In this document: positions 24,909 through 60,381 of the stretch, in pieces
Layout of the letters: each line of letters begins with the position of its first letter
How positions within the stretch are numbered: position 1 is the stretch's first letter
NCBI GenBank assembly: GCA_965203555.1
Contig: CBDBCY010000004.1
Location: 800,001 to 864,000, forward strand
Length of the DNA: 64,000 nucleotides
Direction of reading: 5' to 3'
Origin: Acidimicrobiia bacterium
Lineage (GTDB): Bacteria; Actinomycetota; Acidimicrobiia; Spongiisociales; ZC4RG35
Made by a program: the position numbers and the translations under genes
Notes under the pieces: generated by a model
What the model was told of the DNA's origin: nothing
The model's database searches: none
The model's input: the letters and a program-made list of their open reading frames with translations, nothing else

Positions 24909-25047
24909 GAATCTCTCCTCGAAGCGCCGTCATGTCAAGGGTAACCCGTCAGTTCTGCTTTCCCCGGAGGAAAACCTCGACCCGCCGGTTCACGTCCGAA
25001 GTCGACCGTTCCACTATCCTTCGGTATCGCCTCACCCACCGGAGTAC

Positions 25048-26463: not shown

Positions 26464-27065
26464 AATCTGTTTCCGTAATAACCGGCGCCATGCTTCCCCT
26501 GCCACGCGCCAACGTGGACACCGATCAAATCATGCCCAAGCAATTCCTCAAGCGGGTGGAACGGACCGGATACGGACAGTACCTGTTCTGGGACTGGAAG
26601 CGGACTCCCGGTGGGGATCCGGATCCGCAGTTTCCCCTCAATCAGCCCCAGTACGCCAAAGCGAAAGTCCTGGTGGCCGGACCCAACTTCGGCTGCGGAT
26701 CCTCGCGGGAACACGCTCCCTGGGGATTGCAGGACTGGGGCTTCGAGGCAGTGATCGCTCCGTCCCTGGCCGACATTTTCCGCACCAATTGCACCAAGAT
26801 CGGACTGTTGCCCATTCAGCTACCGTCCCCGGAGATTGAGACTTTGACTACCCTCGCCCAACGCCACCCCGACAGCCTGGTCACCATCGACCTGGAGGAT
26901 CAGACAGTCGAGGCGCCCGGCGTCTCCGCCCACTTCGACATGGATCCCTTTACCAAGTGGCGAATGCTCAACGGCTATGACGACATCGGACTCACTCTCC
27001 GCCACACCGCCGACATTGACGCATTCGAGCGCAGCCGGCCCTCCCACCTGCCCTCACTCCGGTAA
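26460..27065 (+). CDS. leuD: 3-isopropylmalate dehydratase small subunit
   Basis: [18 protein letters not shown]; ATGA overlap with leuC. Confidence 0.97.
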
Positions 27066-35115: not shown

Positions 35116-35122
35116 AGATACC

Positions 35123-35145
35123 AGTATGCACCAGGGGTGTGACAA
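35123..35145 (-). promoter_or_regulatory. RecA-NDp / PafBC-type promoter, likely giving a leaderless HNH mRNA
   Basis: TTGTC-acacccctggtg-CATACT ending 7 nt before ATG 35115; shares TTGTCACA with the recA promoter. Confidence 0.6.
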
Positions 35146-41106: not shown

Positions 41107-41736
41107 CTATGGATCCGTGATCTCCAATCCCCAGCTAATCCACCCATCGGCGTTCGTGCGGGCGAACAACTCGATCTTGCTCTGCGAAGGAAACATTTCT
41201 TCGATCCTGCTCCGGACTTCCTCGGGCTTCTGCGAGTGCGGGCCTCGTGCGCTGCGAACCATCTGACGAACATTTCTCGCCCCCCGAGGCGTCGGGATTC
41301 GACCCTTCTTGAAAACCAGGCAGAGTTCACATTGGCTGAGGGTGTAGAAACCCGGGTTCACTCTTACCTTGTCCCATACGAAGGCAACCGTCGCCCACTT
41401 GAACCCCCAGGACTTTCCCAGTTCCACAGCCTGGTCAAGGTGAGGATTGGTAGTCCACATGAACAACAGGCAGTCGTCGGCAGCGATGGAGGGAACTCCC
41501 AGTTTCTTGAGATCGGAGAGCTTGACCGTGGGATAGTGCCGGACGGCGCCTCCGGTGTCGCCCGATCCCACTCCGGCGTGCTGGAGTTGCCCCCGGTAGT
41601 CCCAGGGTGGATCGGCATAGATAATCGCGAATCTCTGATCGGGGAGCCCAGGGAACATTTGCTCGGTTCCGATGTCAACACCTACCTGCTTGTCTTGGGA
41701 CCCGACCCTCTCCACGCGGGCTGATCGCCGAGACAC
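41107..41736 (-). CDS. MT-A70 family adenine methyltransferase
   Basis: IIYADPPW, LLFMW, HSQKPEE, IELFAR..WG.E. Confidence 0.9.
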   Translation of the reverse strand: MSRRSARVERVGSQDKQVGVDIGTEQMFPGLPDQRFAIIYADPPWDYRGQLQHAGVGSGDTGGAVRHYPTVKLSDLKKLGVPSIAADDCLLFMWTTNPHLDQAVELGKSWGFKWATVAFVWDKVRVNPGFYTLSQCELCLVFKKGRIPTPRGARNVRQMVRSARGPHSQKPEEVRSRIEEMFPSQSKIELFARTNADGWISWGLEITDP

Positions 41737-41811: not shown

Positions 41812-42891
41812 TCAACCGGCCCGCATCGGCATGACCAGATTCCAGACTCGCGCACAGTGGGGGTCGGCGACAAGTACCGGCTTGGGCCGGGCCAGCGGAT
41901 CTTCTGCAAACCTGATCTCCACCTGATCGGAGACCAGGTTCGCCAGAGCGTCCGCCAGGAACAACGAGTTGAAACGCATAGTCAATTCCTCTGGCAACGC
42001 CGCATGATGGGCATCCACGGATCCGCTCACCATCCCGATCGGCGATTTCGCAACGAACTCAATTCCCGATGTTGAGAAAACCAGCTTGGCGGGTGCCGGT
42101 GACTTTCGGTCCAGCGCCACGACTCTGGAGGTGAGTTCGGAGAGGGGGGCTCGGGCACAAACGACGCGACCCTCCCAGGGAGGGGACCAGCCCCGGTAGC
42201 GTGGATAGTCAGATCGGTCGCACACGATCCCCATCTTGCCCAGCTTCTCGACCTCGAACCACACATAGCCCTCTTCCAACCACACCCGGTACACCGAAGC
42301 CTTTCCAAATGCCCGCAGCATCCTCTTGATCAGACGGACGTTCACCGAGAATGTCCCGTGACCCGGGATTCCCGACAAGTCACGCACCGCCAGCCGGAAG
42401 GTGTCGGAGGCAACCAGCCGCATGGTCCCGTCCGTCTCATCGAATCGCACCGAGCCGAATATCGGATGGTTGTCGGTGGCGGCCGCCGGAATCACACCAC
42501 CCAGGGACGATCTCATAAGCTCTCCATCGATGGGGTCTGCGGTATCTTCAGGCTCCGGTAATACGACTCCGCACAGTTCGTCCTGTTCGGCCAGGACAAC
42601 CCTGGCGCCCCCGCCGGTAAAAGCTATCCCTTCCTCTGCCCGTTCCATGGTGACCGCGCCGGCAGGAAGCGACTTGACCACCGAGACGATCTGTCGCAGC
42701 ATCACCTCGGCTGCCCCGTCCCGATCCACTGCCGCGTCCACTTTGGCCACAAAGACCACGTTCCTTCCAACGGCCACCAATTCCAGTCTCCCCGAATCCG
42801 CCGTCAGCACCAGGGGCGCCGTCGAACCGGCCCCGGTAGAGAGTCTCCGCAGAGCGCTGTTGAGTTGGTGACGCTCCAAGGTTGCCTTCAT
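41812..42891 (-). CDS. Divergent DNA polymerase III beta-clamp paralog
   Basis: 359 aa; LVASDTFRLA, DYPRY, RFNSLFLADAL, terminal LVMPMR; not in a dnaA/recF context. Confidence 0.8.
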   Translation of the reverse strand: MKATLERHQLNSALRRLSTGAGSTAPLVLTADSGRLELVAVGRNVVFVAKVDAAVDRDGAAEVMLRQIVSVVKSLPAGAVTMERAEEGIAFTGGGARVVLAEQDELCGVVLPEPEDTADPIDGELMRSSLGGVIPAAATDNHPIFGSVRFDETDGTMRLVASDTFRLAVRDLSGIPGHGTFSVNVRLIKRMLRAFGKASVYRVWLEEGYVWFEVEKLGKMGIVCDRSDYPRYRGWSPPWEGRVVCARAPLSELTSRVVALDRKSPAPAKLVFSTSGIEFVAKSPIGMVSGSVDAHHAALPEELTMRFNSLFLADALANLVSDQVEIRFAEDPLARPKPVLVADPHCARVWNLVMPMRAG

Positions 42892-43181: not shown

Positions 43182-43880
43182 TCAACTTTCGGCGCTTGGA
43201 TCCCTGGGGAGCTTTTCGAATCGACGCCGGGTCGCCAGCAGACCGACTGCACCCATCACCACCCCGGCCAGATACCACCACGTCCAGTGGGACCAGGCCC
43301 CCACCGACCAAAGGGGCGTCACCAGCCGGACCGCCGAAGCCCATCCCAGACCCGCGGCGGCGCTGCCGCCCTCCCACCGCAGGGGCCTCCACCACAGCAA
43401 TACCGCCCCGGCGGCCAACAATATCGAGACGTAGACGCCTACGGGATGCCGGAGAAGGTCGCTTCCTTGCAGAGGCATCGCCCACCACAGATCCGACGGG
43501 GACCCCAGACAGGATCCCTGCCACCAACATCCCCCTTCCCACACCGCCAACCCGGCCAGAACCGCCGGAACCAGGTGGTCCAGACGTCTCAACAGGTCCG
43601 ATCGACAAGTCCAGGCCAGATAACCGACAGCGGCTATGGCGGCGGGAACCGGCGCGACACCACCCCGGATGAAGACCAGTTCCATCGGAGGGGCCAGCAG
43701 GTCAATACCCTCCGCCAATACGTAGGACAGGCGTCCTGCCGCCATCCCGACCAGGACCGCTCCGAGCAGATCGCTGAACGGTTGCGTGGAACCCGGCGGA
43801 GAATGCCGTCTCGATGCCCACAGTACCAAAGCGGCGACGACCATCGCCCCCAAGGCCCGCAGTACCAGAGTGAAGTCCAC
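43182..43880 (-). CDS. Prolipoprotein diacylglyceryl transferase-like membrane protein
   Basis: GRLSYVL, IRGG, GC...SCLG, WAM..RHPVGVY. Confidence 0.6.
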   Translation of the reverse strand: MDFTLVLRALGAMVVAALVLWASRRHSPPGSTQPFSDLLGAVLVGMAAGRLSYVLAEGIDLLAPPMELVFIRGGVAPVPAAIAAVGYLAWTCRSDLLRRLDHLVPAVLAGLAVWEGGCWWQGSCLGSPSDLWWAMPLQGSDLLRHPVGVYVSILLAAGAVLLWWRPLRWEGGSAAAGLGWASAVRLVTPLWSVGAWSHWTWWYLAGVVMGAVGLLATRRRFEKLPRDPSAES

Positions 43881-43993: not shown

Positions 43994-44488
43994 TCATCCC
44001 AGACGGGAGAGTTCGTCGGTCCACAGGTTGAGAATGTTCTCATCGATGATTCCCCGGTGAACGTTGAGCACGTCACCCGCCGAATCGGTGAACACGGTGA
44101 AGGGAATCCCAAACGCCCCGTAATGCTCCCTCATGGAACCGCCGTCGGCCAGATAGTTTTGGAAGAGGATCCCGAAGGACTCCATGAAGTCGAAGGCGTC
44201 GGCGGCCGTGTCGTCCACCGCCACCCCGATGAAGCGCACCCGGTCGCCATACTCTTCATGAGCCCGCCGCAACACCGGGGCCTCCGCCCGGCACGGTCCG
44301 CACCACGAGGCCCAGAAGTTCACCACCGCCGCCCCACCGGAGGACAGCTCCACGGTCAACTCCTCGGGAGTGATCCAGTTCAAACTGTCCGGCACGGTGG
44401 CTGCCACCGTTTCCGGGTCGCTCCCGCCGCCACACGAAACAGCCAGCAGGCCCAGCAGCACGCCCAGTATCACAGTTTTACGCTTCAT
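43994..44488 (-). CDS. TlpA-family thiol:disulfide oxidoreductase lipoprotein
   Basis: Lipobox AVSC; VNFWASWCGPCRAE. Confidence 0.9.
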   Translation of the reverse strand: MKRKTVILGVLLGLLAVSCGGGSDPETVAATVPDSLNWITPEELTVELSSGGAAVVNFWASWCGPCRAEAPVLRRAHEEYGDRVRFIGVAVDDTAADAFDFMESFGILFQNYLADGGSMREHYGAFGIPFTVFTDSAGDVLNVHRGIIDENILNLWTDELSRLG

Positions 44489-44651
44489 CGCCAATCCATC
44501 GCCAATCCGATGTTATGTGCCCCACCGGGTCTGCGCATCTGTTTCCTCCCCCTCAAGAACCCTTCAGGGGTAAACGGGAATAAGCCGGCGCCCGGCTCGT
44601 CTACAATTGCGTGGGCGAACCGGACCACCTCCGGCTCCCCATCCTCTCCTT

Positions 44652-48363: not shown

Positions 48364-49029
48364 GTGATCCAATCCTCCGCTTCCCCCTCCCCGACCACCC
48401 CCTTGGTGGAATTGGTCGATCTCTCCGTTTCGTTGGGCGGGGTCCGAGTACTTTCGGATTGCCGACTCACACTCCATCCCGGTGAGTGCCTGGGGGTGGC
48501 AGGACCAAACGGCGCCGGGAAATCGACGCTGCTGGCCACGGTAGCCACCTTCATCTCCCCCGCCGAGGGCGCCGGAACGGTCATGGGGGTTCCCCTCGGT
48601 ACACCCCGAACCCCGGCGGTACGCTCCCGGATCGGATGGTCCGGGCATCTCCCCGCCCTTTATCCCGACCTGACTCTTGGCGAGAACCTGACCATGGCCG
48701 CCCGGTTGAGTGGCCGCTCCGCCAACGACGGAGATCGCGCCCTCCAGAAGGTGGGATTGGGACGGGCTCGCAATATACGTGTGGAGAGGTGCTCCAACGG
48801 AATGAAACGAAGAGCCGACCTGGCCCGGTTACTGATCGGCCGGCCGCGCCTGGTGCTGCTCGACGAACCCGACGCCGGCCTGGACCGGGACGCCGCTTCG
48901 ATCATCACCCACTTGATCAGTAGAACCACCAGCCGGGGCGGCGGCGTGCTGTGCGTCTCCCACGATGCCGCCCGATTGTCGGGCTGGGCAGACCGGGTGG
49001 TGGAGATCAGGGAGGGAAGGATCAGATGA
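48364..49029 (+). CDS. ccmA: Heme ABC exporter ATPase CcmA
   Basis: GPNGAGKS, CSNGMKRR, LLDEP; operon context. Confidence 0.85.
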   Translation: MIQSSASPSPTTPLVELVDLSVSLGGVRVLSDCRLTLHPGECLGVAGPNGAGKSTLLATVATFISPAEGAGTVMGVPLGTPRTPAVRSRIGWSGHLPALYPDLTLGENLTMAARLSGRSANDGDRALQKVGLGRARNIRVERCSNGMKRRADLARLLIGRPRLVLLDEPDAGLDRDAASIITHLISRTTSRGGGVLCVSHDAARLSGWADRVVEIREGRIR

Positions 49030-49703
49030 CGGCCGGTTTCTGGAGGTCCGCATCAATCATTGCCCTGCGCGATCTCCGGGTTGAGATTCGAAGCGGAGAA
49101 GCTCTGTCGGTGGTCTTTCCGTTCGCGGTCGTAGCCACCTGGGTGGTGCCCCTGGCGACCGACGCCTCCCGGAGTTTGCTCAGGGATCTGGCTGCTCCCG
49201 TCTACTGGCTGATCTTTCTGCTGTTCGGAATGATGATCGTTTTCCGGCAGACCGCGGTGGAGACATCGGACCAAAGGCGCGTGCTGGCGCTGACGGGCCT
49301 TGACCCGGCTGCCCGGTTCGCAGGCCGCTCAGCAGCGTCGGCACTGATCCTGGTCCCGATATCGGGGACGCTGGTCTTTCCGATCATCGTGCTCTACGAC
49401 TACCGGCCTCCGTCGGGAACGATCCTGATGGTCCCAGTGATCATCCTCGCCGCGGCAGGAATATCCATGTTGGGGACCTTGGCCGCAGATGTAACCGTGG
49501 GATTGAGGGCCCGCACCAGCCTCGCCCCCCTGCTGATGGCGCCCTTGGCCGCTCCCCTCCTGATGGGCGCTTCCCAGGCCCTGGAAAGCTTGATCGCCGA
49601 ACGCGGTATCATCATCTGGGTACTGGTGCTGGTTATCGCTGACCTGGGGTTGGCCGCCGCCGGAGTCATGTCGGCCCGGGCCTTGGAGGAAATCGCTCTG
49701 TGA
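49026..49703 (+). CDS. ccmB: Heme exporter permease CcmB
   Basis: RDLRVEIRS, multiple TM segments, LAPLLMAPL. Confidence 0.85.
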   Translation: MTAGFWRSASIIALRDLRVEIRSGEALSVVFPFAVVATWVVPLATDASRSLLRDLAAPVYWLIFLLFGMMIVFRQTAVETSDQRRVLALTGLDPAARFAGRSAASALILVPISGTLVFPIIVLYDYRPPSGTILMVPVIILAAAGISMLGTLAADVTVGLRARTSLAPLLMAPLAAPLLMGASQALESLIAERGIIIWVLVLVIADLGLAAAGVMSARALEEIAL

Positions 49704-50404
49704 AAAAGAAGGTTCTCGCCACCCTGACCGTCCTGGCGTTGGCGGCGGGTCTGGCCACTGCATTCACCTCACCCCCCGACGTCTTGCAGGGTGACTTCGT
49801 TCGGATCCTCTACATTCACGTTCCTTCAGCCTGGTTGGCTTTTCTGGCCTTCGGAGTCACTGCGGTGGGAAGCATCGGGTGGCTGTTCACCCACCGGATG
49901 GGTTGGGACCGGGTGGCTGAGGCGTCTGCGGAGACGGGCGTGCTCTTCACGGCCGTCGCCCTGGCCACCGGGATGATCTGGGGAAAGCCGGTCTGGGGCA
50001 CTTACTGGGATTGGGGTGACGCACGATTGGCCACCACCGCCCTGATGTTCTTCGTCTACCTGGGCTACCTGGCACTGCGTCGCACCACGTCCGACCCCTA
50101 CCGTCAGGCCCGTCGTTCATCGGTATTGGGAGCGGTGGCGGTCGTGCAGGTGCCGCTGGTCTATTTTTCGGTGAAACTGTGGCGCACCCTCCACCAGGGT
50201 CTCACCATCCGCCCCGACGGCATCCAAATGGACGGCGCCATGGTCACGGCACTGCTGGCGAACCTGGGAGCTTTCACCTTGCTTTACCTGACTCTGATCA
50301 GCTTCCGGACCGAACTGGCCCGACTTGAGAAAGCTGTTCACGAATCGCAGGTCTCGGTCCAAAACCGTGTCACCGTCCCCCAACTGGGTAAAGCAGAAGC
50401 GTGA
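49700..50404 (+). CDS. ccmC: Heme exporter CcmC
   Basis: YIHVPSAW, WGKPVWGTYWDWGDARL (WWD domain), WRTLHQ. Confidence 0.92.
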   Translation: MKKKVLATLTVLALAAGLATAFTSPPDVLQGDFVRILYIHVPSAWLAFLAFGVTAVGSIGWLFTHRMGWDRVAEASAETGVLFTAVALATGMIWGKPVWGTYWDWGDARLATTALMFFVYLGYLALRRTTSDPYRQARRSSVLGAVAVVQVPLVYFSVKLWRTLHQGLTIRPDGIQMDGAMVTALLANLGAFTLLYLTLISFRTELARLEKAVHESQVSVQNRVTVPQLGKAEA

Positions 50405-50511
50405 ACGCCGGTTGGGTATGGGCAGCGTATCTTGCCACGGGCCTGATCCTGGCGGGCTACGTTCTCCGCCTGGTGGTCCGGTGGCGGAGGGCGACCGGTC
50501 GCCGCGACTGA
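50401..50511 (+). CDS. ccmD: CcmD-like small membrane protein (absent from the ORF track)
   Basis: GTGA overlap with ccmC and TGATG overlap with ccmE; MNAGWVWAAYLATGLILAGYVLRLVVRWRRATGRRD. Confidence 0.75.
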   Translation: MNAGWVWAAYLATGLILAGYVLRLVVRWRRATGRRD

Positions 50512-50918
50512 TGAAGGTACGCCGCTGGCCGTTTTTGATCTCGGCGGGGGTGGCCATCCTGATAGCCGGCTTCTTCCTGGTGCAGAACATCGGCAACGAC
50601 CTGGTCTACTACCTCACTCCCCACGAAGCCGTGACCCAGCGCGCCGACTTCACCGACGGCCGGCGCTTCCGGTTGGCGGGCGTCGTGGTGGAGGGGTCGC
50701 TGCGGGAAGGTAGCGATCCGCTCAGGTTCGAACTCACCGATGGCGCTTCCACCATTTCCGTCCTTCTCACCGACACCCCTCCTCTCCTGTTCGACGAGGA
50801 TGTGAACGTGCTGCTGGACGGGGCTTGGCAAGATGATCACTATCGGGCGGACGGGGCACTTGTATCCCATGATGAGAATTACGAGGCCCCTCCGGTGACC
50901 GGCGTCTCGGAACCCTGA
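50511..50918 (+). CDS. ccmE: Heme chaperone CcmE
   Basis: LVYYLTP, RFRLAGVVVEGS, SHDENY (HxxxY). Confidence 0.9.
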   Translation: MKVRRWPFLISAGVAILIAGFFLVQNIGNDLVYYLTPHEAVTQRADFTDGRRFRLAGVVVEGSLREGSDPLRFELTDGASTISVLLTDTPPLLFDEDVNVLLDGAWQDDHYRADGALVSHDENYEAPPVTGVSEP

Positions 50919-52966
50919 TGCTCTCCTTCTCCGGAACCCTGGCGGTGTGGGCGGCGCTGTTCGGCGCGGCCTGGCTGACATTGACGGCTTGGCAGGCGGC
51001 CAGGCGGCGCTCTTTCTCCGTAGCCGTTCTCCGTAGGCCGATGCTGACCATGGTCCTGGCTGCCGTGGCCGCCATGGTGGTCCTGCTCGCCGCCCTGCTG
51101 GCCAACGATTTCACTGTCTCCTACGTGGCGAACCACCATTCCCGACATACCCCTTTTCCCTTCAACATCGCCACTGCCTGGGCGGCTCTGGAGGGCTCTA
51201 TAGTGCTCTGGGGGCTGGTGCTGGCCGGTTATGCCTACTTCGTCTGGCGACGAGCCACCACCAGAAGTGGGCAGCCGGACGCCTTGGACTGGGGCGCCCT
51301 GGCTGCTATCGCAGCGGTGGGGGTGTTCTTCTTCGGATTGATGGCTACGGTGGGCAATCCCTTCGAGGTGTGCGTGGAGGCCACCTCCCGCTCCTGCGCC
51401 GTCTCCAGCGCCATACCCTTCTCCCCGGCGGTGGGGCCTGCTGACGGCGCCGGCCCCAACCCGCTCTTGCAGAACCATATCTTGATGGCTATTCACCCAC
51501 CGCTTCTCTACCTGGGCTACGTGGGAATGACCGTTCCCTTCGCCTATGGCGTCGCCGCCCTGGCCCTGCGCCGACCCGGTTCGGAGTGGCTGCGCCGAAG
51601 CGGCATGTGGACCAGGATCAGCTGGGTGTTTCTCACCGCCGGCATCACCCTGGGCGCCTGGTGGGCTTACGAGGTGTTGGGCTGGGGAGGGTATTGGGCG
51701 TGGGACCCGGTGGAGAACGCCTCTTTCATGCCCTGGCTGGTCGCCACCGCCTTCCTGCATTCCTCCCTGGTGCAGGAGCGCAGAGGAATGTTGGAGGCGT
51801 GGAATTTCGTGCTGGTGATCGGAACCTTCTCCTTGACCATCCTCGGCACTTTCCTTACCCGTTCCGGAGTGATCGCTTCGGTCCATTCCTTCACCCAGTC
51901 GGCGATCGGCCCGGCGCTTTTGGGATTCCTGGTGGTGGTGGTGGTGGGCTCGTTCACTTTGTTCGCGGCGCGCGCCCAGTTGATCTCCTCACCTCCCCGG
52001 TTGGAGTCCCTTTCCAGTCGGGAGGGGAGTTTCCTGCTCAACAACCTGCTCTTGACTGTGTATGCAATGGTGGTGCTGACCGGCACCATCTATCCGCTGG
52101 TGCTGGAAGCCTTCACCGGTTCTGAGGTGGGAGTGGGGAGGCCCTTCTTTGATCGTCTGGCCGTTCCCATCAGCTTTGCCCTGTTGCTGGCGATGGGTTT
52201 GGGACCCGCCCTCCCCTGGCGGGTGGCCCGGCCCAAAATAGTGTGGCCCCGGATACATCTTCCCCTCCAAGTGGCGTTGGGAGTCGCAGCGGTGGTGGTG
52301 ATGACCGCCACCGCGATCGGCTATGTGGTGCTGGCGGTGCTGGCGGGCAGCTGGGTGGTGGCGGTGGCTGCCTATCGCCTCTGGGCCCAGGCCCGTCGGA
52401 TCGCCGGATCCAGAGGAACGGCGGTTCACAGGCAGTTGGGAAGAGTCGTCCGGTCCGATCGAGGGTTCTGGGGAGGCCAGGTGGCTCACGCCGGGGTGGC
52501 GTTGGCGGCGGTGGCCATCGCCACCACCGCCAACCTGGGGCAAACCCTGGACCGGGTGGAGCTGACGCCCGGGGACCGGGTCGAGTTTGCCGGGTACCAG
52601 TTGCTCCACACCGGCGTGGACACTGCCAGGACGCCAAACCGTCTCACCAGTTCCGCCGCCGTGCAGGTCTGGAAGGACGACGCATTGCAGGGACTGGCGA
52701 GACCTTCCCTGAGCCAATTCGAGACCTCGGCTCTGCCGATTGCCACTCCCGGGATACATCGCACCTTCAAAGAGGACCTCTACCTGAGCCTGACCCGCAT
52801 CGACGAGCAGGGCATCACCCTGCGGGCGGCCACCGCTCCCCTCCAATGGGTGCTGTGGGTGGGCGGCCTGCTCTGCGCGGCGGGAGGTCTCTATTCGCTG
52901 GTGGGACGGAACCGTCGCCGGTCCGCCTCCCCGGCCCGGATGAAGGGACCCCGCCCGCGTGGATGA
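50918..52966 (+). CDS. ccmF: Cytochrome c heme lyase CcmF
   Basis: WAALEGS, NPLLQ..HPPLLY, WAYEVLGWGGYWAWDPVEN, SVHSF. Confidence 0.95.
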   Translation: MLSFSGTLAVWAALFGAAWLTLTAWQAARRRSFSVAVLRRPMLTMVLAAVAAMVVLLAALLANDFTVSYVANHHSRHTPFPFNIATAWAALEGSIVLWGLVLAGYAYFVWRRATTRSGQPDALDWGALAAIAAVGVFFFGLMATVGNPFEVCVEATSRSCAVSSAIPFSPAVGPADGAGPNPLLQNHILMAIHPPLLYLGYVGMTVPFAYGVAALALRRPGSEWLRRSGMWTRISWVFLTAGITLGAWWAYEVLGWGGYWAWDPVENASFMPWLVATAFLHSSLVQERRGMLEAWNFVLVIGTFSLTILGTFLTRSGVIASVHSFTQSAIGPALLGFLVVVVVGSFTLFAARAQLISSPPRLESLSSREGSFLLNNLLLTVYAMVVLTGTIYPLVLEAFTGSEVGVGRPFFDRLAVPISFALLLAMGLGPALPWRVARPKIVWPRIHLPLQVALGVAAVVVMTATAIGYVVLAVLAGSWVVAVAAYRLWAQARRIAGSRGTAVHRQLGRVVRSDRGFWGGQVAHAGVALAAVAIATTANLGQTLDRVELTPGDRVEFAGYQLLHTGVDTARTPNRLTSSAAVQVWKDDALQGLARPSLSQFETSALPIATPGIHRTFKEDLYLSLTRIDEQGITLRAATAPLQWVLWVGGLLCAAGGLYSLVGRNRRRSASPARMKGPRPRG

Positions 52967-53393
52967 CCAACCGACCGTCAAGCGGCGTCTCCGGCGGCTC
53001 TCCCCCCTGGTCACGGTAGGGCTGGGGATCTTCATACTGGTCTCGGTCGTAAACGCCGACCCTATAGCTCAAGACCGTTCCGAGCGCCTGGGAAAACAGG
53101 TGCGCTGCCCGGCCTGCGAAGGGGAATCCATAGCCGAGTCGCCCAGTTCCTACGCAGCCGACATGATGACCTACGTGCGTGAACTGATAGACGGGGGGCT
53201 GTCCGACCGGCAAGTCTTGGACCGGTTGATGGCGTCATACCCGGATTCCCAGTTACTCGATCCTCCGCTGAGAGCCGGCACTGTTCTGTTGTGGCTTGTT
53301 CCCGCCGCCGCCTTGCTGGCCGGTGCGGGCCTGGCCGTATCCCGCCTCCGCAGGCGGCCGATCTTCTGGCCGGATGGAGATCCCGGTGAGTGA
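52959..53393 (+). CDS. ccmH: CcmH
   Basis: VRCPACEGESIAES, LLWLVP. Confidence 0.9.
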   Translation: MDDQPTVKRRLRRLSPLVTVGLGIFILVSVVNADPIAQDRSERLGKQVRCPACEGESIAESPSSYAADMMTYVRELIDGGLSDRQVLDRLMASYPDSQLLDPPLRAGTVLLWLVPAAALLAGAGLAVSRLRRRPIFWPDGDPGE

Positions 53394-54174
53394 GGAATCC
53401 AAGTGGCAGCGGCGATTCGACCAGGCCTCCCGGGATCTGGAAGAGTTGGAACTGCAGCTCGCCCAGGGTGAGATACCCGCGTCAACCGGTAGGAGACTGC
53501 AAGAGACATACCGGGAGGAGATGGAGGAGGCCCGGCGCGGCATTGGGGATGCAACACCAGGAGTGGACCCCGACTCGGCGCCTGCCGGGGAGGACGTCCG
53601 GTCCACGGGATTCTGGAACCAGGGAAGGATCTTGGTGGCGGTCATTCTGGCGGCCGCCGCCTTGGCGTTGGTGGTTTCAGTGGGTTGGTTCGCCCGGCCC
53701 GAACAGCAGGTCGCTTCCGACCAGGAGTTCGATCCGTCCAGTTATTCCAACGAGACCATGGAGGCGGTGATCGCCGCCAACGCCGATCACCCCCGGATAA
53801 ACGGGATGCGCCTGGCCCTGGCAGCGCGGTATTTCCAGGCGGGAGAATTCTCGGGCGCCTTTGCCCATTACCGGGAAGTATTGGAACGCGACCCGCTCCC
53901 CGGCGAGGAGGCCGAGGCTTTGAGACGCCTGGGTTGGATGGCCTGGGCGGGTTCGGGAGAAGTTCAGTTGGCCGTCGAGACCCTGGACCGGTCCCTGGTC
54001 GTGGTCCCAAACCACCCCCAGACCCTCTATTTCAAGGCCATTGTCCTCTGGTGCGGCGCCGGACAGCATCAGGAGGCTGTTCCGCTATTGGAACGAGTTG
54101 TCGAAGCTCTGCCCGCCGAGACCGAAGTCGTCGCCGAACTGGCCGCCGCCCGGGAGGGAGAAACGTGTCGGTGA
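53386..54174 (+). CDS. TPR membrane protein (CcmI/CycH-like)
   Basis: RDLEELE..GEI, TM helix, TPR-like helices; position in the ccm operon. Confidence 0.75.
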   Translation: MSEESKWQRRFDQASRDLEELELQLAQGEIPASTGRRLQETYREEMEEARRGIGDATPGVDPDSAPAGEDVRSTGFWNQGRILVAVILAAAALALVVSVGWFARPEQQVASDQEFDPSSYSNETMEAVIAANADHPRINGMRLALAARYFQAGEFSGAFAHYREVLERDPLPGEEAEALRRLGWMAWAGSGEVQLAVETLDRSLVVVPNHPQTLYFKAIVLWCGAGQHQEAVPLLERVVEALPAETEVVAELAAAREGETCR

Positions 54175-54725
54175 GTTACAAGCCCGGCCGGGCGGTGATG
54201 GCTCTTGCGGCACTGGTGGTGGTCTCGACTGCGGTTGTCGCCGGGGTTTTTGCCTCCCGACTCTCAAACGACCCCCTATCAACCCCCTCACCGCTGATCG
54301 GCAGGCAGTCACCCATCTTGACCCTTCCGTTCCTGGACGGATCGGGGGAACTCGCCATCCCGGATCCCGAGGCCGAGGTGACCATCATCAACTTCTTTGC
54401 ATCCTGGTGCCTGGAGTGCCGGGTGGAGCATGCCGATCTGATGGCGGTGGCCGATGCCTTCTCCGGGGCGGGAGTCCGACTGGTCCAGATCGCCTACCAG
54501 GATCGCACCACAGACGCCATCGCCTTCGTCAACGAGATGGGAGTTTCACCCCTGGTCGGCTACGTTTCCGACCCCGGCAGTCGCGCAGCCATCTCATTCG
54601 GGGTTTTCGGGGTGCCGGAGACTTACGTCATCGGACCGGACGGCACGGTTACGGAAAGGATCACCGGACCGACCACCGCCCTGCAGTTGGGTGAACAGAT
54701 AGACCGCGTGCTGGGCGCCGGGTAG
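54171..54725 (+). CDS. ccmG: CcmG/DsbE thioredoxin
   Basis: SPLIG, INFFASWCLECRVEH, GVFGVPETYVI. Confidence 0.88.
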   Translation: MSYKPGRAVMALAALVVVSTAVVAGVFASRLSNDPLSTPSPLIGRQSPILTLPFLDGSGELAIPDPEAEVTIINFFASWCLECRVEHADLMAVADAFSGAGVRLVQIAYQDRTTDAIAFVNEMGVSPLVGYVSDPGSRAAISFGVFGVPETYVIGPDGTVTERITGPTTALQLGEQIDRVLGAG

Positions 54726-54748
54726 CCGGTGAACCAGGCAACCGTTCC

Positions 54749-56143
54749 CTACGGGATCAACTCGAATAGCACTCCCGGCGGTGGGGCCTGGGTCAGGTCT
54801 CTGCCGCCCACGCCCATCAGGTGGCGGTCAAAAAACGAGACCAGGTAACGGTCGACGATGGCAAAGACCTGAGCCGCGGGCATGGAACCTCGCAACCCGA
54901 ACCAACCTCCCACCGGGGAGATCGCCGGCGCCGCGGTCAGATCGCTGTGTACGGTGTTTTCGATCCCAATCCAGTAGGTGCGCCGGTTGCTGCGTTCCAC
55001 CAGACCCCTCAGCACCCCGTCATTCTCCAGTTCTCGCCAAGGGTCGGACCGAATGAACATGGAAGGCACATCCAGTTCTGTCGAGAGTTCCGAGGCGGTG
55101 ATCGGCTCGACCCACCCGTCCAGGGAGGCCACAACCCGACACCTGGTATCTACCAGACAGGTCCTGACTGCCGCTCCTCCGCCGAGAGAGTGACCGTAGA
55201 TTCCCAGGCGTTCCATATCTGCAATCCCCGCCAATGATCCGAATGGTCCGCTCACCCCCTCTTCCAAGCCGGCGATGACCATCAAGAGATCATCAGAGTA
55301 GGTCTGCAGAATCCTTATCGCCGCTACTTCGAACGCATCATCGCCTACTTCGTCCAGATCGGGAAGCGCATCGGGATCCAATCCGACCACCTCCCCGTCC
55401 GGAAATACCGTGGCCACCGACCCGTAAGTGTGGTCGACTGATATGACCAGGTACCCGTGGCTGGCCAGGGACTCCATTTGGTGCACTGCCGCGTTGCGGA
55501 ACAGTCGCCATCCGTGTGAATAGAGAATGACCGGGATCTTTCCCTGATAGGGCAGGGCTTGCTCGTAACTGTGAGCGCCCGTATAGCGGGTGTGATCGAG
55601 AAGGAAGCCCGGGATGCCCAGGGTTTCGGCCAGAGCCGGTCCCACTACTTCCAAGTCCTCGATCCAGGGACTGAGCGGTTCGGCATCCCCTGATACTCGA
55701 CCGGGATACCAGACCTGCACCATCACTCGCCGGAATTCGCCAGGATTGGCCCCGTAGTCCTCGAGTCGATCATCGCTGCGGATCTCAAAGCTGCGGGTGG
55801 CAATCTGATAGGGTCCGGTCGGCGGAGGCATTTCCACGATGGGCAGGGCCCACAGCGGAATGATCACCAGCATGATTCCGACCACACCCAAGACCGCCCT
55901 GCGGATACGCTGGTAGGACTCCAGCCGTCTCTCACCGGCCAGCAGATCACCCAGTGCCATCCCGAGGGCCACTGCGTACAAACCCCACAGTTGCCACCGG
56001 AATCCCTCCACCAGAAACTGCATCGACCCACAGGCCGACAGCACCACCGCCACCACCCCTCTGGGGAGCCGCTTGCCCTCCAACGCCGGCCAGATGATGG
56101 CCAGTACACAGGTCCCGGTAAGCAGTACCTCCCAGAGTCTCAT
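54749..56143 (-). CDS. Membrane-anchored alpha/beta hydrolase (PAF-acetylhydrolase-like)
   Basis: VQVWYP, YSHG, LASHGY..DH, GHSLGG, LDGW. Confidence 0.85.
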   Translation of the reverse strand: MRLWEVLLTGTCVLAIIWPALEGKRLPRGVVAVVLSACGSMQFLVEGFRWQLWGLYAVALGMALGDLLAGERRLESYQRIRRAVLGVVGIMLVIIPLWALPIVEMPPPTGPYQIATRSFEIRSDDRLEDYGANPGEFRRVMVQVWYPGRVSGDAEPLSPWIEDLEVVGPALAETLGIPGFLLDHTRYTGAHSYEQALPYQGKIPVILYSHGWRLFRNAAVHQMESLASHGYLVISVDHTYGSVATVFPDGEVVGLDPDALPDLDEVGDDAFEVAAIRILQTYSDDLLMVIAGLEEGVSGPFGSLAGIADMERLGIYGHSLGGGAAVRTCLVDTRCRVVASLDGWVEPITASELSTELDVPSMFIRSDPWRELENDGVLRGLVERSNRRTYWIGIENTVHSDLTAAPAISPVGGWFGLRGSMPAAQVFAIVDRYLVSFFDRHLMGVGGRDLTQAPPPGVLFELIP

Positions 56144-56200
56144 GAAACCTCAGTCACGTCCGTTGGAACCAGGAACCGTGACGGACCGGTTACCGAGTGT

Positions 56201-57055
56201 TCAGCCCGATACGGAAAGCAGCTCTTCGATGGCGCTCCTCAGGGAAGATTCACCCTGAGCACCGAACAGCGTCTGGACAATGGTCTTGTCGGCGCCGACC
56301 AGAACGGTCACCGGCTGGTAACCGACTCCATAGGCCGAAAAGATCCGCTCCTCCTGGTCCAGGCCCCACTTCACTGCTCCGCTGGTCAAAAGCTGCCCGG
56401 CTCTTTGTGAGGTGTCCGACAGGCCGGCCTTCCAGGCCGGAGCCACGAATGCCACACGATCCTGGTACTCGGTCGCCAGTTGATCCACGACGGGCAACTC
56501 CCGTCGACAAGCCGGTCACCACTCGGCCCAAAACACCAGGTAGACAGGCCGCGGTTCGGCAGAAAGGGTGAAGGTTCCACCGTTTCCCAACTCCAAGGTG
56601 AAATCGGGTGCGCCTGGACGATCATGAGCCTCGGTCGTGGTGGTCGTGGGAGCAGCCGTAGAAGTGGTAGTGATCGCCCCAGTGGTTGTCGGGGGTTGGG
56701 TGGTGGGAGCGGCAGTCGTGGTGGCGACAGTGTCCTCGTCGGTCACAACCGCCACCGTGGTGGTGACGTCCGTGTCAACCTCCTCAGCCGCCGTCGTCTC
56801 TGCTGCCACCGTGTTCGTGGTTACCGCCCCGCTGGTCGGCGCCGGATCGTTGTCGCCCAAAGCGGGATCCTCAACCCCTGAAGAAGGTTCCTCCACCGGC
56901 TGGTCCAAGGTCGACTGGGTGGTTGGCGCGGCACCGGCGCTTTCGATCTGTGGGTCCGTATCTTCCGAACCACATGCGCTCCACACCAGTCCGCAAAGTA
57001 CCCAGACAGCCAACCTCACCCGGCCAGGGGGTTGGGAAGGCTTTGTGCGGCTCAT
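56201..57055 (-). CDS. Predicted selenoprotein: TlpA-like thioredoxin lipoprotein with U-P-A-C motif (in-frame UGA at 56516-56518), 284 aa
   Basis: Lipobox WSAC, Thr-rich linker, APDFTL..VFWAEW-TGA-PACRRELP continuing in frame into 56201..56497. Confidence 0.85.
56488..56506 (-). promoter_or_regulatory. SECIS-like hairpin
   Basis: CGACGGG-AGTTG-CCCGTCG starting 9 nt after the UGA. Confidence 0.65.
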
Positions 57056-57651
57056 CAGGCGTCAGCCAACAGGGTGTCGAGGACCTCCCGGATCGCATCG
57101 GGGTTCCTGGCTCCGCGCCAAGTGGAGACCAGGGAGCCGTCGGCCGCGATGATCGCCCCGGCCGGCTGTCCTCCCACACCGTAGGCGGCGAAAACCTCCT
57201 GCTTTCCATCCAACCCCCACAGGACCTTCCCTGAAGGCAACAGACGATCTGCAACCTGGGTGGTATCTTCCAAACTCGACTTCCAGGCCGGCGCCACCAC
57301 CACGACCCTCCCTTCGTATTCCCCGGCCAACTGGTCGAAAGCGGGCAACTCCCGCCTACAGGTAGGTCACCACTCAGCCCAAAAGATCATAAGGACCGGG
57401 GTGGTCTGGTCCGAAAGAGCGAACGTCCCGCCATCGGCCAACTGCAATGTGAAATCGGGCGCCGGCGGCCCGAGAAGTTCATCCGTGGTTGTCGGGGTCG
57501 TGGTTGCAACTGTGGTTTCGGGAGAGCTGGTCACCGCGGCGACGGCCTCCGCCGGTTCACTGCTGTCCGAACCCCCGCCCCCGCAGGAGGATACGACCAA
57601 ACCAATCAGCAACAATACGGCTGTCCAAGACCAGCGCCCGCCGCGATTCAT
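57055..57651 (-). CDS. Predicted selenoprotein: TlpA-like thioredoxin lipoprotein with U-P-T-C motif (in-frame UGA at 57367-57369), 198 aa
   Basis: Lipobox VSSC, APDFTL..IFWAEW-TGA-PTCRRELP continuing in frame into 57055..57348; TGATG coupling to the next gene. Confidence 0.85.
57339..57357 (-). promoter_or_regulatory. SECIS-like hairpin
   Basis: AGGCGGG-AGTTG-CCCGCTT starting 9 nt after the UGA. Confidence 0.65.
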
Positions 57652-57738
57652 GTGAAAAAGTATAGGTGAAAGACGGTCTTTACACCGCGGGTGAAAGTGC
57701 TCACCGGATTTGCGCCGGTGGCGCCCGCCCTGGGTTCT

Positions 57739-58749
57739 TCACGTACTGCTGAGTTCGATTACCTGGTCGAGCACCTGTTCCGCCGCTCCCGAATCAATAG
57801 ACCTTGCCGCCATACGGGCCCCATCCGTCGCCGTTTCCGCCAACCCGGCCACCATCAGCGTCGCAGCCGCGTTGGCCACCGCCGCGTCCCGGCGGGGACC
57901 GACCTCACCGGCCAACACGGACCGGAGCATCATGGCGTTGCGGCGGGCGTCTCCTCCTATCAGTTCGGAAACATCAGAAGACGCCAGACCGAAGTCATCG
58001 GGGGTGAACACGATCGGTGTAACCTCGCCGCCCGCCAATTCGAAGCCCCTGGTGGGGCCTGAGACCGACACTTCATCCAACCCGTCGTCGGCATGGATCA
58101 CCAATGCCCGCTCCGTCCCGAGACGGGAAAGCACTCCGATCATCCGCTCCGCCATCCGGCTGTCGTAAACGCCGATCAGTTGACGAGTGGCGCCTGCCGG
58201 ATTGGTGAGCGGCCCCAGAAAATTGAAAACGGTGGGTATCCCCAATTGACGCCGGATCGGAACCACATACTTCATGGCCGGGTGGTACCGGGGAGCAAAG
58301 AAGAACCCGAATCCGGCCTCCCTAACCATCTCGGCGGTTTGTTCCGGCGCAAGTTCGATGCCCATTCCCAGGGCTTCCAATACATCCGCCGATCCGCACT
58401 TCGAGGAAGCCGACCGGTTTCCGTGCTTCGCCACTTTGGCACCGGCTCCCGCTGCGATCAGGGCGGCGGTAGTGGAGATGTTGAAAGTGCCGGAGCGATC
58501 TCCTCCGGTCCCGGCCGTGTCCACCACCGGCTCCCCTATCGATACCCTGACGCCCACGGCCCGCATGGTCTCGACCAGGCCGGCCATCTCATCGGTGGTT
58601 TCACCCTTGATTCGAAGCGAGACCAAAAAAGCAGACGTCTGAGCCGCGGTGGCCTGTCCGCTCATGATGTCATTCAGGGCCGCCCGGGCCTGCTCCCGGC
58701 TCAAGTCCTCCCCGGCCGTCAGCTTTCCGAGTACATCAGCCCAGTTCAT
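57739..58749 (-). CDS. trpD: Anthranilate phosphoribosyltransferase
   Basis: DTAGTGGD, NIST, KHGNR, GSADVLE, DGLDE. Confidence 0.96.
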   Translation of the reverse strand: MNWADVLGKLTAGEDLSREQARAALNDIMSGQATAAQTSAFLVSLRIKGETTDEMAGLVETMRAVGVRVSIGEPVVDTAGTGGDRSGTFNISTTAALIAAGAGAKVAKHGNRSASSKCGSADVLEALGMGIELAPEQTAEMVREAGFGFFFAPRYHPAMKYVVPIRRQLGIPTVFNFLGPLTNPAGATRQLIGVYDSRMAERMIGVLSRLGTERALVIHADDGLDEVSVSGPTRGFELAGGEVTPIVFTPDDFGLASSDVSELIGGDARRNAMMLRSVLAGEVGPRRDAAVANAAATLMVAGLAETATDGARMAARSIDSGAAEQVLDQVIELSST

Positions 58750-58763
58750 AGCCTGTTAGTCCC

Positions 58764-59396
58764 TCAGGCGTCGACCGAGTCGGTACGCGCCACCTTGGTA
58801 ACCAGCCAGGCCACAGCCCCGCCGACCAAAGGCGCCACGATGTACAGCCAGATGCCGCTCAGGTCGCCGGCCACCACCGCCGGGCCCAGCGATCGAGCCG
58901 GGTTTACCGAAGCCCCGGAGATGGGTATTCCTGCCAAATGGATAGCGACCAGCGCCAGTGAGATCACCACCCGGGCGTGGCTGAGACCCTGGCTTCCCAC
59001 CACCATGATCACCAACACAAAGGCGCCGGTTAGGATGATCTCGGCGCCGAAGGCGGGACCGGTGTCTCCGAAGGTGTTCATAGTGTCGGCTACGGCATCC
59101 GATCCCTTCATGGCCAGCACGGCCAGCGACGCCAGAACCGCACCGATGACCTGGGCGATCCAGTACCCGATCATGTCAGCGGTGCTGAGGGCGCCGCCCA
59201 ACCGCATCGCCAGGCTAACCGCGGGATTGAAGTGTCCTCCGGAAATGTGACCTACCGAATAAAGGGCGATGAGCAGCGCCAGTCCGAATCCGAATCCCAC
59301 GATCAGCAGGTTCCCACCTGAAGAGAGGGCAGCCATCGACCCTATTGCCACCAGAATGAAAGTGCCGATCAACTCGGCGATATACGACTGCTTCAT
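58764..59396 (-). CDS. Aquaporin (MIP family)
   Basis: SGGHFNPAV and SVNPARS (two NPA motifs). Confidence 0.93.
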   Translation of the reverse strand: MKQSYIAELIGTFILVAIGSMAALSSGGNLLIVGFGFGLALLIALYSVGHISGGHFNPAVSLAMRLGGALSTADMIGYWIAQVIGAVLASLAVLAMKGSDAVADTMNTFGDTGPAFGAEIILTGAFVLVIMVVGSQGLSHARVVISLALVAIHLAGIPISGASVNPARSLGPAVVAGDLSGIWLYIVAPLVGGAVAWLVTKVARTDSVDA

Positions 59397-59483
59397 ATTG
59401 TTCTCCTCCAGGCTATGCGATCAACATCGTAAAACTCTACCCTTCTCGGCTAACAGGATCCGGGTCATCGCTGAAACGGGAAG

Positions 59484-59879
59484 GTGACAAGCTTGAGAAT
59501 TCCTAGCGTCCGATTGCGAGCCTTGGTATTGGGCACGGCCGTGGGACTCCTGGCGGTGGCGTTCGTCACCCTCGTCGAGTGGTGGCTGGGCGCCCTGGGC
59601 TGGGAACTCTTCCCGGGTTTCGGCAGCGCAGACAGCCGGGGGGGCGGCGCCGTGGGGGGATTGGTGGCGGGGGTGCTGGTCGGCGGGTGGGTGTCAGGAC
59701 GGTCCGTCTCCCTGCAACAACGCTTCCACGGCTCCGTAACGGGGCTGGCAATAGTCGCAGTCCTGGTAATGCTGGCCGCCACCGGAGGCGCCAACGTCAC
59801 GATTTCCCAGGTGCTGCCGGCGGCATTGCTGGGAGTCGTCCTCGGCGGACTCACCGGATGGTGGGCCGGACGCCGATGA
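59484..59879 (+). CDS. Hypothetical 4-TM membrane protein
   Basis: Gly-rich hydrophobic ORF between the aquaporin and rnpB. Confidence 0.6.
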   Translation: MTSLRIPSVRLRALVLGTAVGLLAVAFVTLVEWWLGALGWELFPGFGSADSRGGGAVGGLVAGVLVGGWVSGRSVSLQQRFHGSVTGLAIVAVLVMLAATGGANVTISQVLPAALLGVVLGGLTGWWAGRR

Positions 59880-59962: not shown

Positions 59963-60339
59963 GAGCGAGTTCGCCGGGTGACCGCGGGCGTAGGGTAAAA
60001 CCGAGGCTTGAGGAAAGTCCGGACTCCACAGGGCAGGGTGCTGGGTAACGCCCAGGCGGGGCGACCCGACGGAAAGTGCCACAGAGAACAGACCGCCGAT
60101 GGCTCTTGACCAGAGAGCACAGGCAAAGGTGAAACGGTGGTGTAAGAGACCACCAGCGCGCCGGGTAACCGGGGCGGCTGGTAAACCCCACCCGGAGCAA
60201 GGCTAAGCAGGGACGCGGCGGCCCATCGAATCGTCCCGGGTGAGCCGCACGAGGTCGCCGGCGACGGCGATCCCAGATGGATGGTCACCGGGGGCCGGAA
60301 ACGGTCCCCACAGAATCCGGCTTACAGGCGAACTCGTTC
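59963..60339 (+). ncRNA. rnpB: RNase P RNA (type A)
   Basis: GAGGAAAGTCCGGACTCC, GGAAAGTGCCACAGA, ACAGAATCCGGCTTA; terminal helix CGAGTTCGCC/GGCGAACTCG. Confidence 0.97.
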
Positions 60340-60381
60340 TCATCCTGTTTTCGAACCGGTGACCGAGACCTGCCATTCCTT

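Follow-up and report, generated by a model that had tools for sequence, protein, structure and literature searches.

A Coupled Pair of Predicted UxxC Selenoprotein Genes Beside a Cytochrome c Maturation Cluster in an Acidimicrobiia Bacterium

Introduction

Thioredoxin-fold selenoproteins of the UxxC kind, thiol:disulfide interchange types included, have been catalogued since 2006–2008 (PMC1794560, PMC2398784, PMC13188914). They appear there under names such as 'Thiol:disulfide interchange protein' (PF13098), 'Prx-like thiol:disulfide oxidoreductase' (PF00578), 'Redoxin family protein' (PF08534) and 'Trx-like'. As far as the catalogue passages we drew on describe them, these proteins have a thioredoxin fold, selenocysteine (Sec, U) in place of the first Cys of the CxxC motif, a Sec insertion sequence (SECIS) directly after the UGA codon, and Cys homologues; exchange of Sec and Cys at the catalytic site is the rule. 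The hosts recorded in those passages for the 'thiol:disulfide interchange protein' are Geobacter and Syntrophus species. The GOS families come from unassigned marine reads. Here we describe two adjacent genes from the Acidimicrobiia, called gene A and gene B, which very probably encode selenoproteins of this kind. They lie in a stretch of 64,000 nucleotides (nt) from an Acidimicrobiia bacterium (assembly GCA_965203555.1, contig CBDBCY010000004.1, positions 800,001 to 864,000), which we call the window. All coordinates are positions in the window, and both genes are on the minus strand. Judged by the published descriptions, their family is set apart from the catalogued ones as a lipoprotein with its own motif, a fixed synteny at the side of the cytochrome c maturation (ccm) genes and one to three tandem copies.

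ResA of Bacillus, CcmG/DsbE of E. coli and other bacteria, and TlpA are extracytoplasmic reductases of cytochrome c maturation. The products of genes A and B are like them in a membrane-tethered location on the outer face, which is predicted for the window proteins, in a W-C-x-x-C-type centre and in adjoining a cytochrome c maturation operon. They are unlike them in carrying a predicted Sec residue, and in having a lipobox instead of a transmembrane helix. Unlike ccmG of System I, the Sec genes stand outside the ccm operon, on the opposite strand and convergent with it. DsbF and DsbE (1lu4) of M. tuberculosis and Etrx1 and Etrx2 (4hqs, 2yp6) of S. pneumoniae are likewise exported or lipid-anchored thioredoxin-like proteins, found in Gram-positive bacteria. 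The Etrx proteins feed a surface methionine sulfoxide reductase, and their PDB titles read 'exposed lipoprotein thioredoxin'. All four are Cys-based, with 24–32% identity to the window protein. NCBIfam also holds a ResA-like selenoprotein whose motif begins with WA, the 'ResA-like WAxxUGC motif-containing protein' (NF041054). Its motif is U-G-C, as against WAEW-U-P-x-C in the window genes, which with 32.9 and 27.2 bits stay below the model's cut-off of 300 and are not members.

Results and Discussion

When the region 56201–57651 (−) was translated with table 11, four open reading frame (ORF) fragments were obtained (Table 1). In each gene, the first fragment breaks off after FWAEW at an in-frame UGA, beyond which the frame stays open for a further 103–104 codons and completes the thioredoxin fold. 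Matches to the Pfam families AhpC-TSA (PF00578), Redoxin (PF08534) and Thioredoxin cross the UGA in both genes. A first-pass annotation, made from the sequence, had placed this TGA where the first Cys of CxxC belongs, with the frame running on through PTC or PAC and RRELP, and on both points we agree with it. The UGA aligns with the first Cys of CxxC in Cys-type relatives and in the window's own paralogue, which has TGC there. The read-through translation of gene A begins with a signal peptide and a lipobox, continues through a short Thr/Pro/Ala linker and ends in a thioredoxin-fold domain; in gene B the order is the same, with a Thr/Pro/Ala/Glu-rich linker of about 115 residues. Both genes terminate with TGA, and the stop of gene A overlaps the ATG of gene B by one base (TGATG at 57057–57053), which bears out the coupling noted earlier. 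From the evidence given below, we hold with high confidence that genes A and B are two intact, translationally coupled selenoprotein genes.

Table 1. Genes A and B, their parts and their neighbours in the window (positions in the 64,000 nt window; aa, amino acids)
Feature	Position	Strand	Details
Gene A, whole	57055..57651 (codons 57651..57058)	−	198 codons + TGA stop 57057–57055
Gene A, ORF fragment, N-terminal part	57367..57651	−	94 aa, last residues FWAEW
Gene A, ORF fragment, C-terminal part	57055..57348	−	97 aa
Gene A, lipobox V-S-S-C	57583..57594	−	Cys23; canonical
Gene A, thioredoxin-fold (TlpA/ResA-like) domain	57058..57471	−	residues 61–198; Pfam, model and structure matches
Gene A, predicted Sec codon	57367..57369	−	UGA = U95, in FWAEW-U-PTC-RRELP
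Gene A, SECIS-like hairpin	57339..57357	−	7 bp stem, 5 nt loop AGUUG, loop 16 nt past UGA
Gene B, whole	56201..57055 (codons 57055..56204)	−	284 codons + TGA stop 56203–56201
Gene B, ORF fragment, N-terminal part	56516..57055	−	179 aa, last residues FWAEW
Gene B, ORF fragment, C-terminal part	56201..56497	−	98 aa
Gene B, lipobox-like W-S-A-C	56972..56983	−	Cys28; atypical at position −3
Gene B, thioredoxin-fold domain	56204..56620	−	about residues 146–284; Pfam and alignment to gene A
Gene B, predicted Sec codon	56516..56518	−	UGA = U180, in FWAEW-U-PAC-RRELP
Gene B, SECIS-like hairpin	56488..56506	−	7 bp stem, loop AGUUG
Alpha/beta-hydrolase (PAF-AH-like), hydrophobic N-terminal stretch	54749..56143	−	Pfam; 58 nt past gene B
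System I cytochrome c maturation cluster	48364..54725	+	Pfam and synteny; convergent with Sec genes
Cys-type ccmG-like gene, end of ccm operon	~54210–54725	+	motif WCLEC
Cys-type paralogous thioredoxin lipoprotein, WCGPC	43994..44494	−	27% identical to gene A
lgt (prolipoprotein diacylglyceryl transferase gene)	43182–43880	−	directly downstream of the WCGPC thioredoxin gene

To place the UGA among relatives, species-representative genomes were scanned with an alignment of the family, and at least 80 loci were obtained. The best 38 are the family (E values of 1e-35 to 1e-68), while those beyond them are generic Cys thioredoxins (1e-14 or weaker). All family counts in this text are among the matches listed in that scan, namely the 38 loci, mostly from Acidimicrobiia, plus the window. 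These hold at least 50 family genes, and the catalytic codon is TGA in 45 of 50 and TGC or TGT in the other five. TGA forms occur in 33 of the 38 loci and in the window; the Cys forms are those of L008, L017, L031, L032 and L035. The homologue comparison that the first-pass annotation had suggested, Cys or conserved TGA at this site, comes out largely for TGA. Its remark that such genes would be unusual in an actinobacterium does not hold within the Acidimicrobiia, where the Sec form is the rule. One of the two patterns used in the scan, FWAEWCP, was presumably back-translated with TGY for the Cys and would then pass over TGA, in which case the sample is biased to Cys forms.

The frame past the UGA site is open for 102–122 codons in 49 of the 50 genes, with the exception of L038, which has an extra stop. 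The 45 Sec forms end in TGA (27), TAG (15) or TAA (3). We calculated the ratio of nonsynonymous to synonymous substitution rates (dN/dS) by the pairwise Nei–Gojobori method for 416 pairs of Sec forms at 60–97% identity. The median was 0.18 over the 100 codons that follow the UGA (390 usable pairs) and 0.10 over the 30 that precede it (311 usable pairs), synonymous sites being close to saturation in these pairs. The window genes, compared with their nearest orthologues, gave 0.12–0.29 downstream of the UGA. Selection on the downstream part is thus purifying, and the relaxation that the first-pass annotation had named as a sign against recoding is not seen. TGA is the stop codon of 30 of the 41 Pfam-supported ORFs of the window, and being the usual stop it has not been reassigned genome-wide. 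Taken together, the conserved UGA, the open frame, the purifying dN/dS and the ordinary TGA stops effectively exclude a pseudogene, an assembly error or a changed code.

A hairpin follows the UGA directly in both genes. In all 45 Sec forms, columns 13–31 after the UGA are able to form a 7 bp stem at a spacing of 16 nt, with the loop sequence AGUUG in 40 and AGUUA in five. When the 19 nt core was folded, a hairpin with at least five pairs and a 5 nt loop resulted in 42 of the 45. The median minimum free energy (MFE) of the core is −10.6 kcal mol−1, and 41 of the 45, both window genes included, reach −7.5 kcal mol−1 or lower. The weaker cores are those of L026 and of the third tandem copies of L013, L027 and L030; these third copies have a shifted hairpin of 4–5 bp with the 4 nt loop AGUU, and a Glu-to-Gln change. 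Between genes A and B, two stem pairs differ by full compensatory double changes, one of them through a synonymous switch of an Arg codon. In the alignment of the 45 sequences, 91.4% of the cells are paired, as against 36–70% when the partners are slid by one to three columns. Double-sided changes are present at five of the seven stem pairs, and none of 500 shuffles reached the observed covariation score. For the Leu that falls in the loop, all 45 Sec forms have UUG or UUA and all five Cys forms have CUN; among the Leu codons of the window genes, UUG and UUA account for 22%. The five Cys forms keep the peptide motif R/K/L-E-L-P and have no stable hairpin (core MFE −1.2 to −5.4 kcal mol−1).

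The published model of bacterial SECIS (bSECIS) elements, as it is summarized in the source, asks for a loop of 3–9 nt, a stem of 4–16 bp, a G in the first two loop positions, a distance of 16–37 nt from the UGA and an MFE of −7.5 kcal mol−1 or lower (PMC13188914). The window hairpins lie within these constraints, their 16 nt spacing being at the lower limit of the range, and by sequence and fold they fit a predicted bacterial SECIS. A covariance model built from the 45 hairpins recovered, in the window and the 38 loci, only those 45 and two weak matches, one to a Cys form (E 0.42) and one other (E 0.45); the model includes coding sequence and is too specific for the SECIS of other genes.

The preference of the first-pass annotation for Sec recoding over pseudogenization is thus upheld by the TGA (45 of 50 genes), the open frame (49 of 50), the dN/dS of 0.18 and a covarying hairpin that is present in the TGA forms only. 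Several observations nevertheless weigh against reading the genes as selenoprotein genes of the proposed function. ARAGORN found no tRNA-Sec in the window, which has five ordinary tRNAs, and no tRNA of any kind in the 38 family loci. A Pfam scan (E ≤ 1e-8) of 82 ORFs, out of the 127 with 150 aa or more that are listed for the window, gave no selA, selB or selD either. No CcdA/DsbD-type electron donor was present among these 82 ORFs and 14 further ones (E ≤ 1e-3), which together are part of the window ORFs. The hairpin is matched by no Rfam family: at gathering thresholds the whole window gave no SECIS and no tRNA-Sec family, and at E ≤ 10 the region 56100–57750 gave neither of the two, but five weak chance matches to unrelated families. 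It also lies within conserved coding sequence (RRELP), so that its conservation is partly protein-driven, and the compared sequences are related and thus not independent samples. The lipobox of gene B is atypical, with W at −3, and export is judged by motif only. Finally, the functional link to the ccm genes comes solely from the neighbourhood, and a Cys-type ccmG is already part of the ccm operon.

Some of these points are put in proportion by a preprint on Actinomarina (Actinomarinales, Acidimicrobiia), according to which each of the 84 complete genomes of the genus carries selA, selB, selC and selD, and Rfam covers bacterial SECIS elements poorly (10.64898/2026.04.03.716425). By analogy, this makes a Sec trait in the host of the window plausible, short of proof. 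In our search of the literature on selenoproteins or selenocysteine in Acidimicrobiia or Acidimicrobiales, this preprint alone was relevant; the word 'thioredoxin' is absent from its text, its supplements having been outside the search.

Among the alternatives, the one that survives best, though we consider it improbable, is that the UGA and its hairpin are recoded to a residue other than Sec. This would be Cys, inserted through a tRNA(Sec)-like tRNA(Cys) and a SelB-like factor, or Trp or Cys inserted by near-cognate read-through. In that case too, the products would be enzymes of the CxxC type in full length. SelB-dependent insertion of Cys has been described in the literature. The conserved UGA, the open frame and the hairpin do not identify the inserted residue, and the missing machinery noted above, both in the window ORFs scanned and, for tRNA-Sec, in the window and the 38 loci, is in favour of this alternative. 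The site aligns, however, with the catalytic Cys, at which, by the catalogue accounts, Sec/Cys exchange is the rule for UxxC selenoproteins. For Cys, moreover, an ordinary UGY codon would be enough, and the five Cys orthologues, which have no hairpin, use one. Sec machinery is also reported in Actinomarina, which is of the same class.

We give less weight still to the idea that A and B are pseudogenes with nonsense mutations and that the four fragments are decaying remnants. Each gene is indeed interrupted under table 11, and the scans of the window gave no Sec machinery. Against decay, TGA is at the same codon in 45 genes from the window and 33 other genomes, and 49 of the 50 genes have no other in-frame stop from −30 to +100 codons around it. 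The downstream dN/dS of about 0.18 at near-saturated synonymous sites, the compensatory changes in the hairpin and the retention of the TGA by both paralogues, which are 55% identical, also speak against it.

Equally slight is the chance that the UGA terminates translation and that the C-terminal piece starts at the UUG of the hairpin, giving a split thioredoxin, or that the N-terminal lipopeptide alone is functional. Gene callers do place C-terminal starts at this UUG (MPA.D...). Yet in the predicted structure the break would fall between the strand 86–91 and the helix 96–111, separating the U/C-x-x-C centre from helix α1. The downstream piece would also be without an export signal, and the proposed start codon would be covered by the hairpin. 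The Cys orthologues are single polypeptides with CUN at that codon instead of UUG. Least credible of all is a sequencing or assembly error, or a strain polymorphism, of a TGC/TGT codon, which has nothing in its favour beyond the single-base distance and is contradicted by the recurrence of TGA in 33 independently assembled loci and twice in the window.

The consequences of the UGA for annotation can be seen in public protein sets, which contain N-terminal pieces with FWAEW as their last residues, and C-terminal pieces whose first codon is the Leu UUG of the hairpin loop, as the first-pass annotation had expected of standard gene calling. The false C-terminal starts in the window are at 57348 and 56497 (−), at the UUG in the SECIS-like loop, and proteins P0016, P0018–P0020 and P0022 start likewise. 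Full-length WCPTC proteins are listed as well, in which the C may be a true Cys or a Sec stored as C; one of them, P0017, matches the TGA-bearing locus L012 over the compared stretch. Some orthologues have a C-terminal tail (…SGSNSFSIGSA…PG) that window gene A lacks. The window was also scanned for further genes with an in-frame TGA by the GC content of third codon positions (GC3), a scan whose negative outcome carries little weight, since genes A and B themselves were not flagged. Its three candidates were judged to be an ordinary stop between adjacent genes, a frame antisense to a gene, and an overlap with the RNase P RNA region.

The AhpC-TSA and Redoxin matches of the window proteins are above the Pfam cut-offs, the Redoxin match spanning residues 61–185 of gene A. 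An AlphaFold model of gene A was built with a 15-sequence alignment. In this model, residues 1–60 are disordered, while the mean predicted local distance difference test (pLDDT) score is 92–98 in each block of ten residues between 61 and 198. U95 is positioned directly ahead of helix α1 (96–111), after the strand 86–91. P163, invariant in the 15-sequence alignment, is the conserved Pro opposite the active site (the cis-Pro position of thioredoxin folds). A Foldseek search of the PDB returned DsbF (3ios), ResA (1st9 and 4nmu), DsbE (1lu4), Etrx1/2 and CcmG as best matches, with TM-scores of 0.77–0.90 normalized to the target. The best structural match is DsbF of M. tuberculosis (3ios; E 1e-12, TM-score 0.89). 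ResA of Bacillus (1st9) superposes with a TM-score of 0.90 and a root mean square deviation of 1.6 Å, and CcmG (2b1k) with a TM-score of 0.77. By sequence, the best matches are 4hqs and 4evm, with Etrx of S. pneumoniae (4hqs) first (E 7e-13).

NCBIfam holds no dedicated model for the family, and no model reaches its cut-off on the window proteins. ResA scores 51.6 bits (cut-off 170), TlpA 38.2 (230), StoA 37.7 (210) and DsbE 35.3 (123). By sequence and model, the proteins therefore belong to the TlpA-like superfamily of extracytoplasmic thiol-disulfide oxidoreductases and to none of its named families. The superfamily is marked by a thioredoxin fold with additional strands at the N-terminus and an insert in the centre, and by a redox centre at the start of helix α1. 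The motif common to the family is FWAEW-U-P-x-C-RRELP ... VAPAWK. Both N-termini have a basic and hydrophobic stretch followed by the lipobox Cys, as judged by motif only, and a lipobox-like motif is present in 39 of the 50 family genes. In keeping with lipid anchoring, lgt is among the window genes (Table 1). The first-pass annotation had assigned lipoboxes to both genes. That of gene A (VSSC) is canonical; WSAC of gene B is present but departs from the consensus at −3. Orthologues of gene B have LGAC or LGGC as their lipobox.

We propose the following mechanism. By sequence and model, each gene encodes a thioredoxin-fold thiol-disulfide oxidoreductase of the TlpA/ResA/DsbE class, in which the UGA specifies the attacking residue of the U-x-x-C centre. 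From the comparison of relatives and what is known of bacterial Sec decoding, the UGA would be read as Sec, with the hairpin 16 nt downstream acting as the SECIS for SelB and Sec-tRNA(Sec). The proteins are predicted to leave the cytoplasm and to be held by a lipid anchor at the outer face of the membrane. As in the family at large, they may act as reductases, the selenolate attacking a substrate disulfide and the second Cys resolving the selenenylsulfide. Re-reduction would then be expected from a membrane electron carrier of the CcdA/DsbD type. As to the substrate, the thiol pathway of cytochrome c maturation is the leading candidate because of the conserved position beside the ccm operon, and we name it tentatively, giving it somewhat under an even chance. 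The balance goes to repair of oxidized surface proteins or some other redox task in the envelope. The Pfam-scanned ORFs beside the window genes include no msr gene.

The thioredoxin domains of genes A and B share 55% identity over 135 aa. Their history was followed in a maximum-likelihood tree of 49 domains; L038, with its extra stop, was omitted from this tree and from the rooted one. Gene B belongs to a starred clade of eight; with 30 further genes, nearly all of them the sole copy found in their locus, this clade makes up a group of 38 that is starred as well. Gene A is in another starred clade, which has 11 members, third copies among them. Copies of the gene A type are found only in L001, L013, L015, L027, L030 and L034, besides the window, among the loci listed. 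Gene B is thus orthologous to a gene that most sampled Acidimicrobiia have in single copy, and gene A is a lineage-specific tandem duplicate. A third tandem Sec copy lies upstream of the gene A orthologue in L013 (~9002), L027 (~8960), L030 (~8987) and L001 (~9499). These third copies are more diverged (U-P-V-C-K-R-Q-L-P ... LAPAVQS); the window has two copies only.

The five Cys forms group together as a single clade (support 99/97). When the tree was rooted with 19 Cys-type paralogues, this clade was nested among the Sec forms; in an approximately unbiased (AU) test, a tree with all Sec forms together was not rejected (p 0.41). Monophyly of the Cys forms and the AU test mean that one switch between Sec and Cys suffices. 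Reversion from Sec to Cys is rare in bacteria, according to a 2026 review. That Sec is the ancestral and prevailing state of this exported, lipid-anchored oxidoreductase across the Acidimicrobiia, beside ccm, with one clade reverted to Cys with loss of the SECIS and one lineage, the window included, amplified to two or three Sec copies, is a scenario that we regard as possible but doubtful. Two loci are recorded under other taxa, L019 as Acidobacteriota and L037 as Gammaproteobacteria. Both have the full Acidimicrobiia-type synteny and genes nested within the family tree, and their contigs are probably mis-binned or mislabelled.

The surroundings of the Sec genes are conserved. In the window, trpD and a MIP channel gene lie upstream. 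Most of the 38 loci share the order MIP–(trpD)–Sec gene(s)–hydrolase and have it converging on ccmG...ccmA; in 34 of them a match to the hydrolase follows the Sec gene(s). Four of the five Cys-type loci have the same synteny, which makes the Cys and Sec genes orthologous; the fifth, L032, spans 3.2 kb, which is not enough to show it. The ccm cluster contains ccmA, ccmB, ccmC, ccmE, ccmF, ccmH, a TPR (ccmI-like) gene and a Cys-type ccmG-like gene (WCLEC). The WCGPC-type thioredoxin gene stands at the head of the ccm operon in most related loci, unlike in the window. A scan of 54500–59600 for promoters and terminators gave no promoter-like site and four terminator-like sites, against 3.3 expected.

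Other features of the window were recorded in passing. A bacterial class A RNase P RNA (280 bits) lies at 59966–60340 (+), 2.3 kb from the Sec genes. The ORF at 7873–10764 (−), of 963 codons, has a GNAT acetyltransferase domain (189–283) ahead of a complete threonyl-tRNA synthetase in the same frame (SAD 489–538, core 645–851, anticodon domain 863–953), and is either a true fusion of the two or an over-long ORF. Aconitase and Aconitase_C domains are found in two overlapping ORFs in different frames at 24733–27065 (+). A frameshifted aconitase (24733–26463 / 26256–27065) was considered here and rejected, adjacent leuC and leuD being the simpler explanation. A DUF222/HNH endonuclease gene (33868–35145, −), an MT-A70 methyltransferase gene (41107–41736, −) and a weak DNA polymerase III beta-like ORF matched in its C-terminal domain only (41812–42891, −) may mark mobile or accessory DNA.

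Conclusion

The family of genes A and B is a distinct lipoprotein subfamily of the Acidimicrobiia within the already known UxxC kind of selenoprotein, and no new category or principle. Standard gene calling breaks each gene into two pieces that make no sense by themselves, and public protein sets already contain pieces of this kind from several genomes. As no NCBIfam model reaches its cut-off, the family is likely mis-annotated across the Acidimicrobiia. Its recognition corrects the annotation and marks the host organisms as probable Sec users. The family also offers a well-defined SECIS variant in 45 natural instances, with the Cys forms as matched controls. If Sec is indeed ancestral and prevailing, the family would be a main reason for the retention of the Sec machinery in Acidimicrobiia and would be a selenol component of extracytoplasmic cytochrome c biogenesis or of surface redox repair. 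For the biology of these organisms, the genes point to a selenium-dependent step in cell-envelope thiol redox, adjoining cytochrome c maturation.

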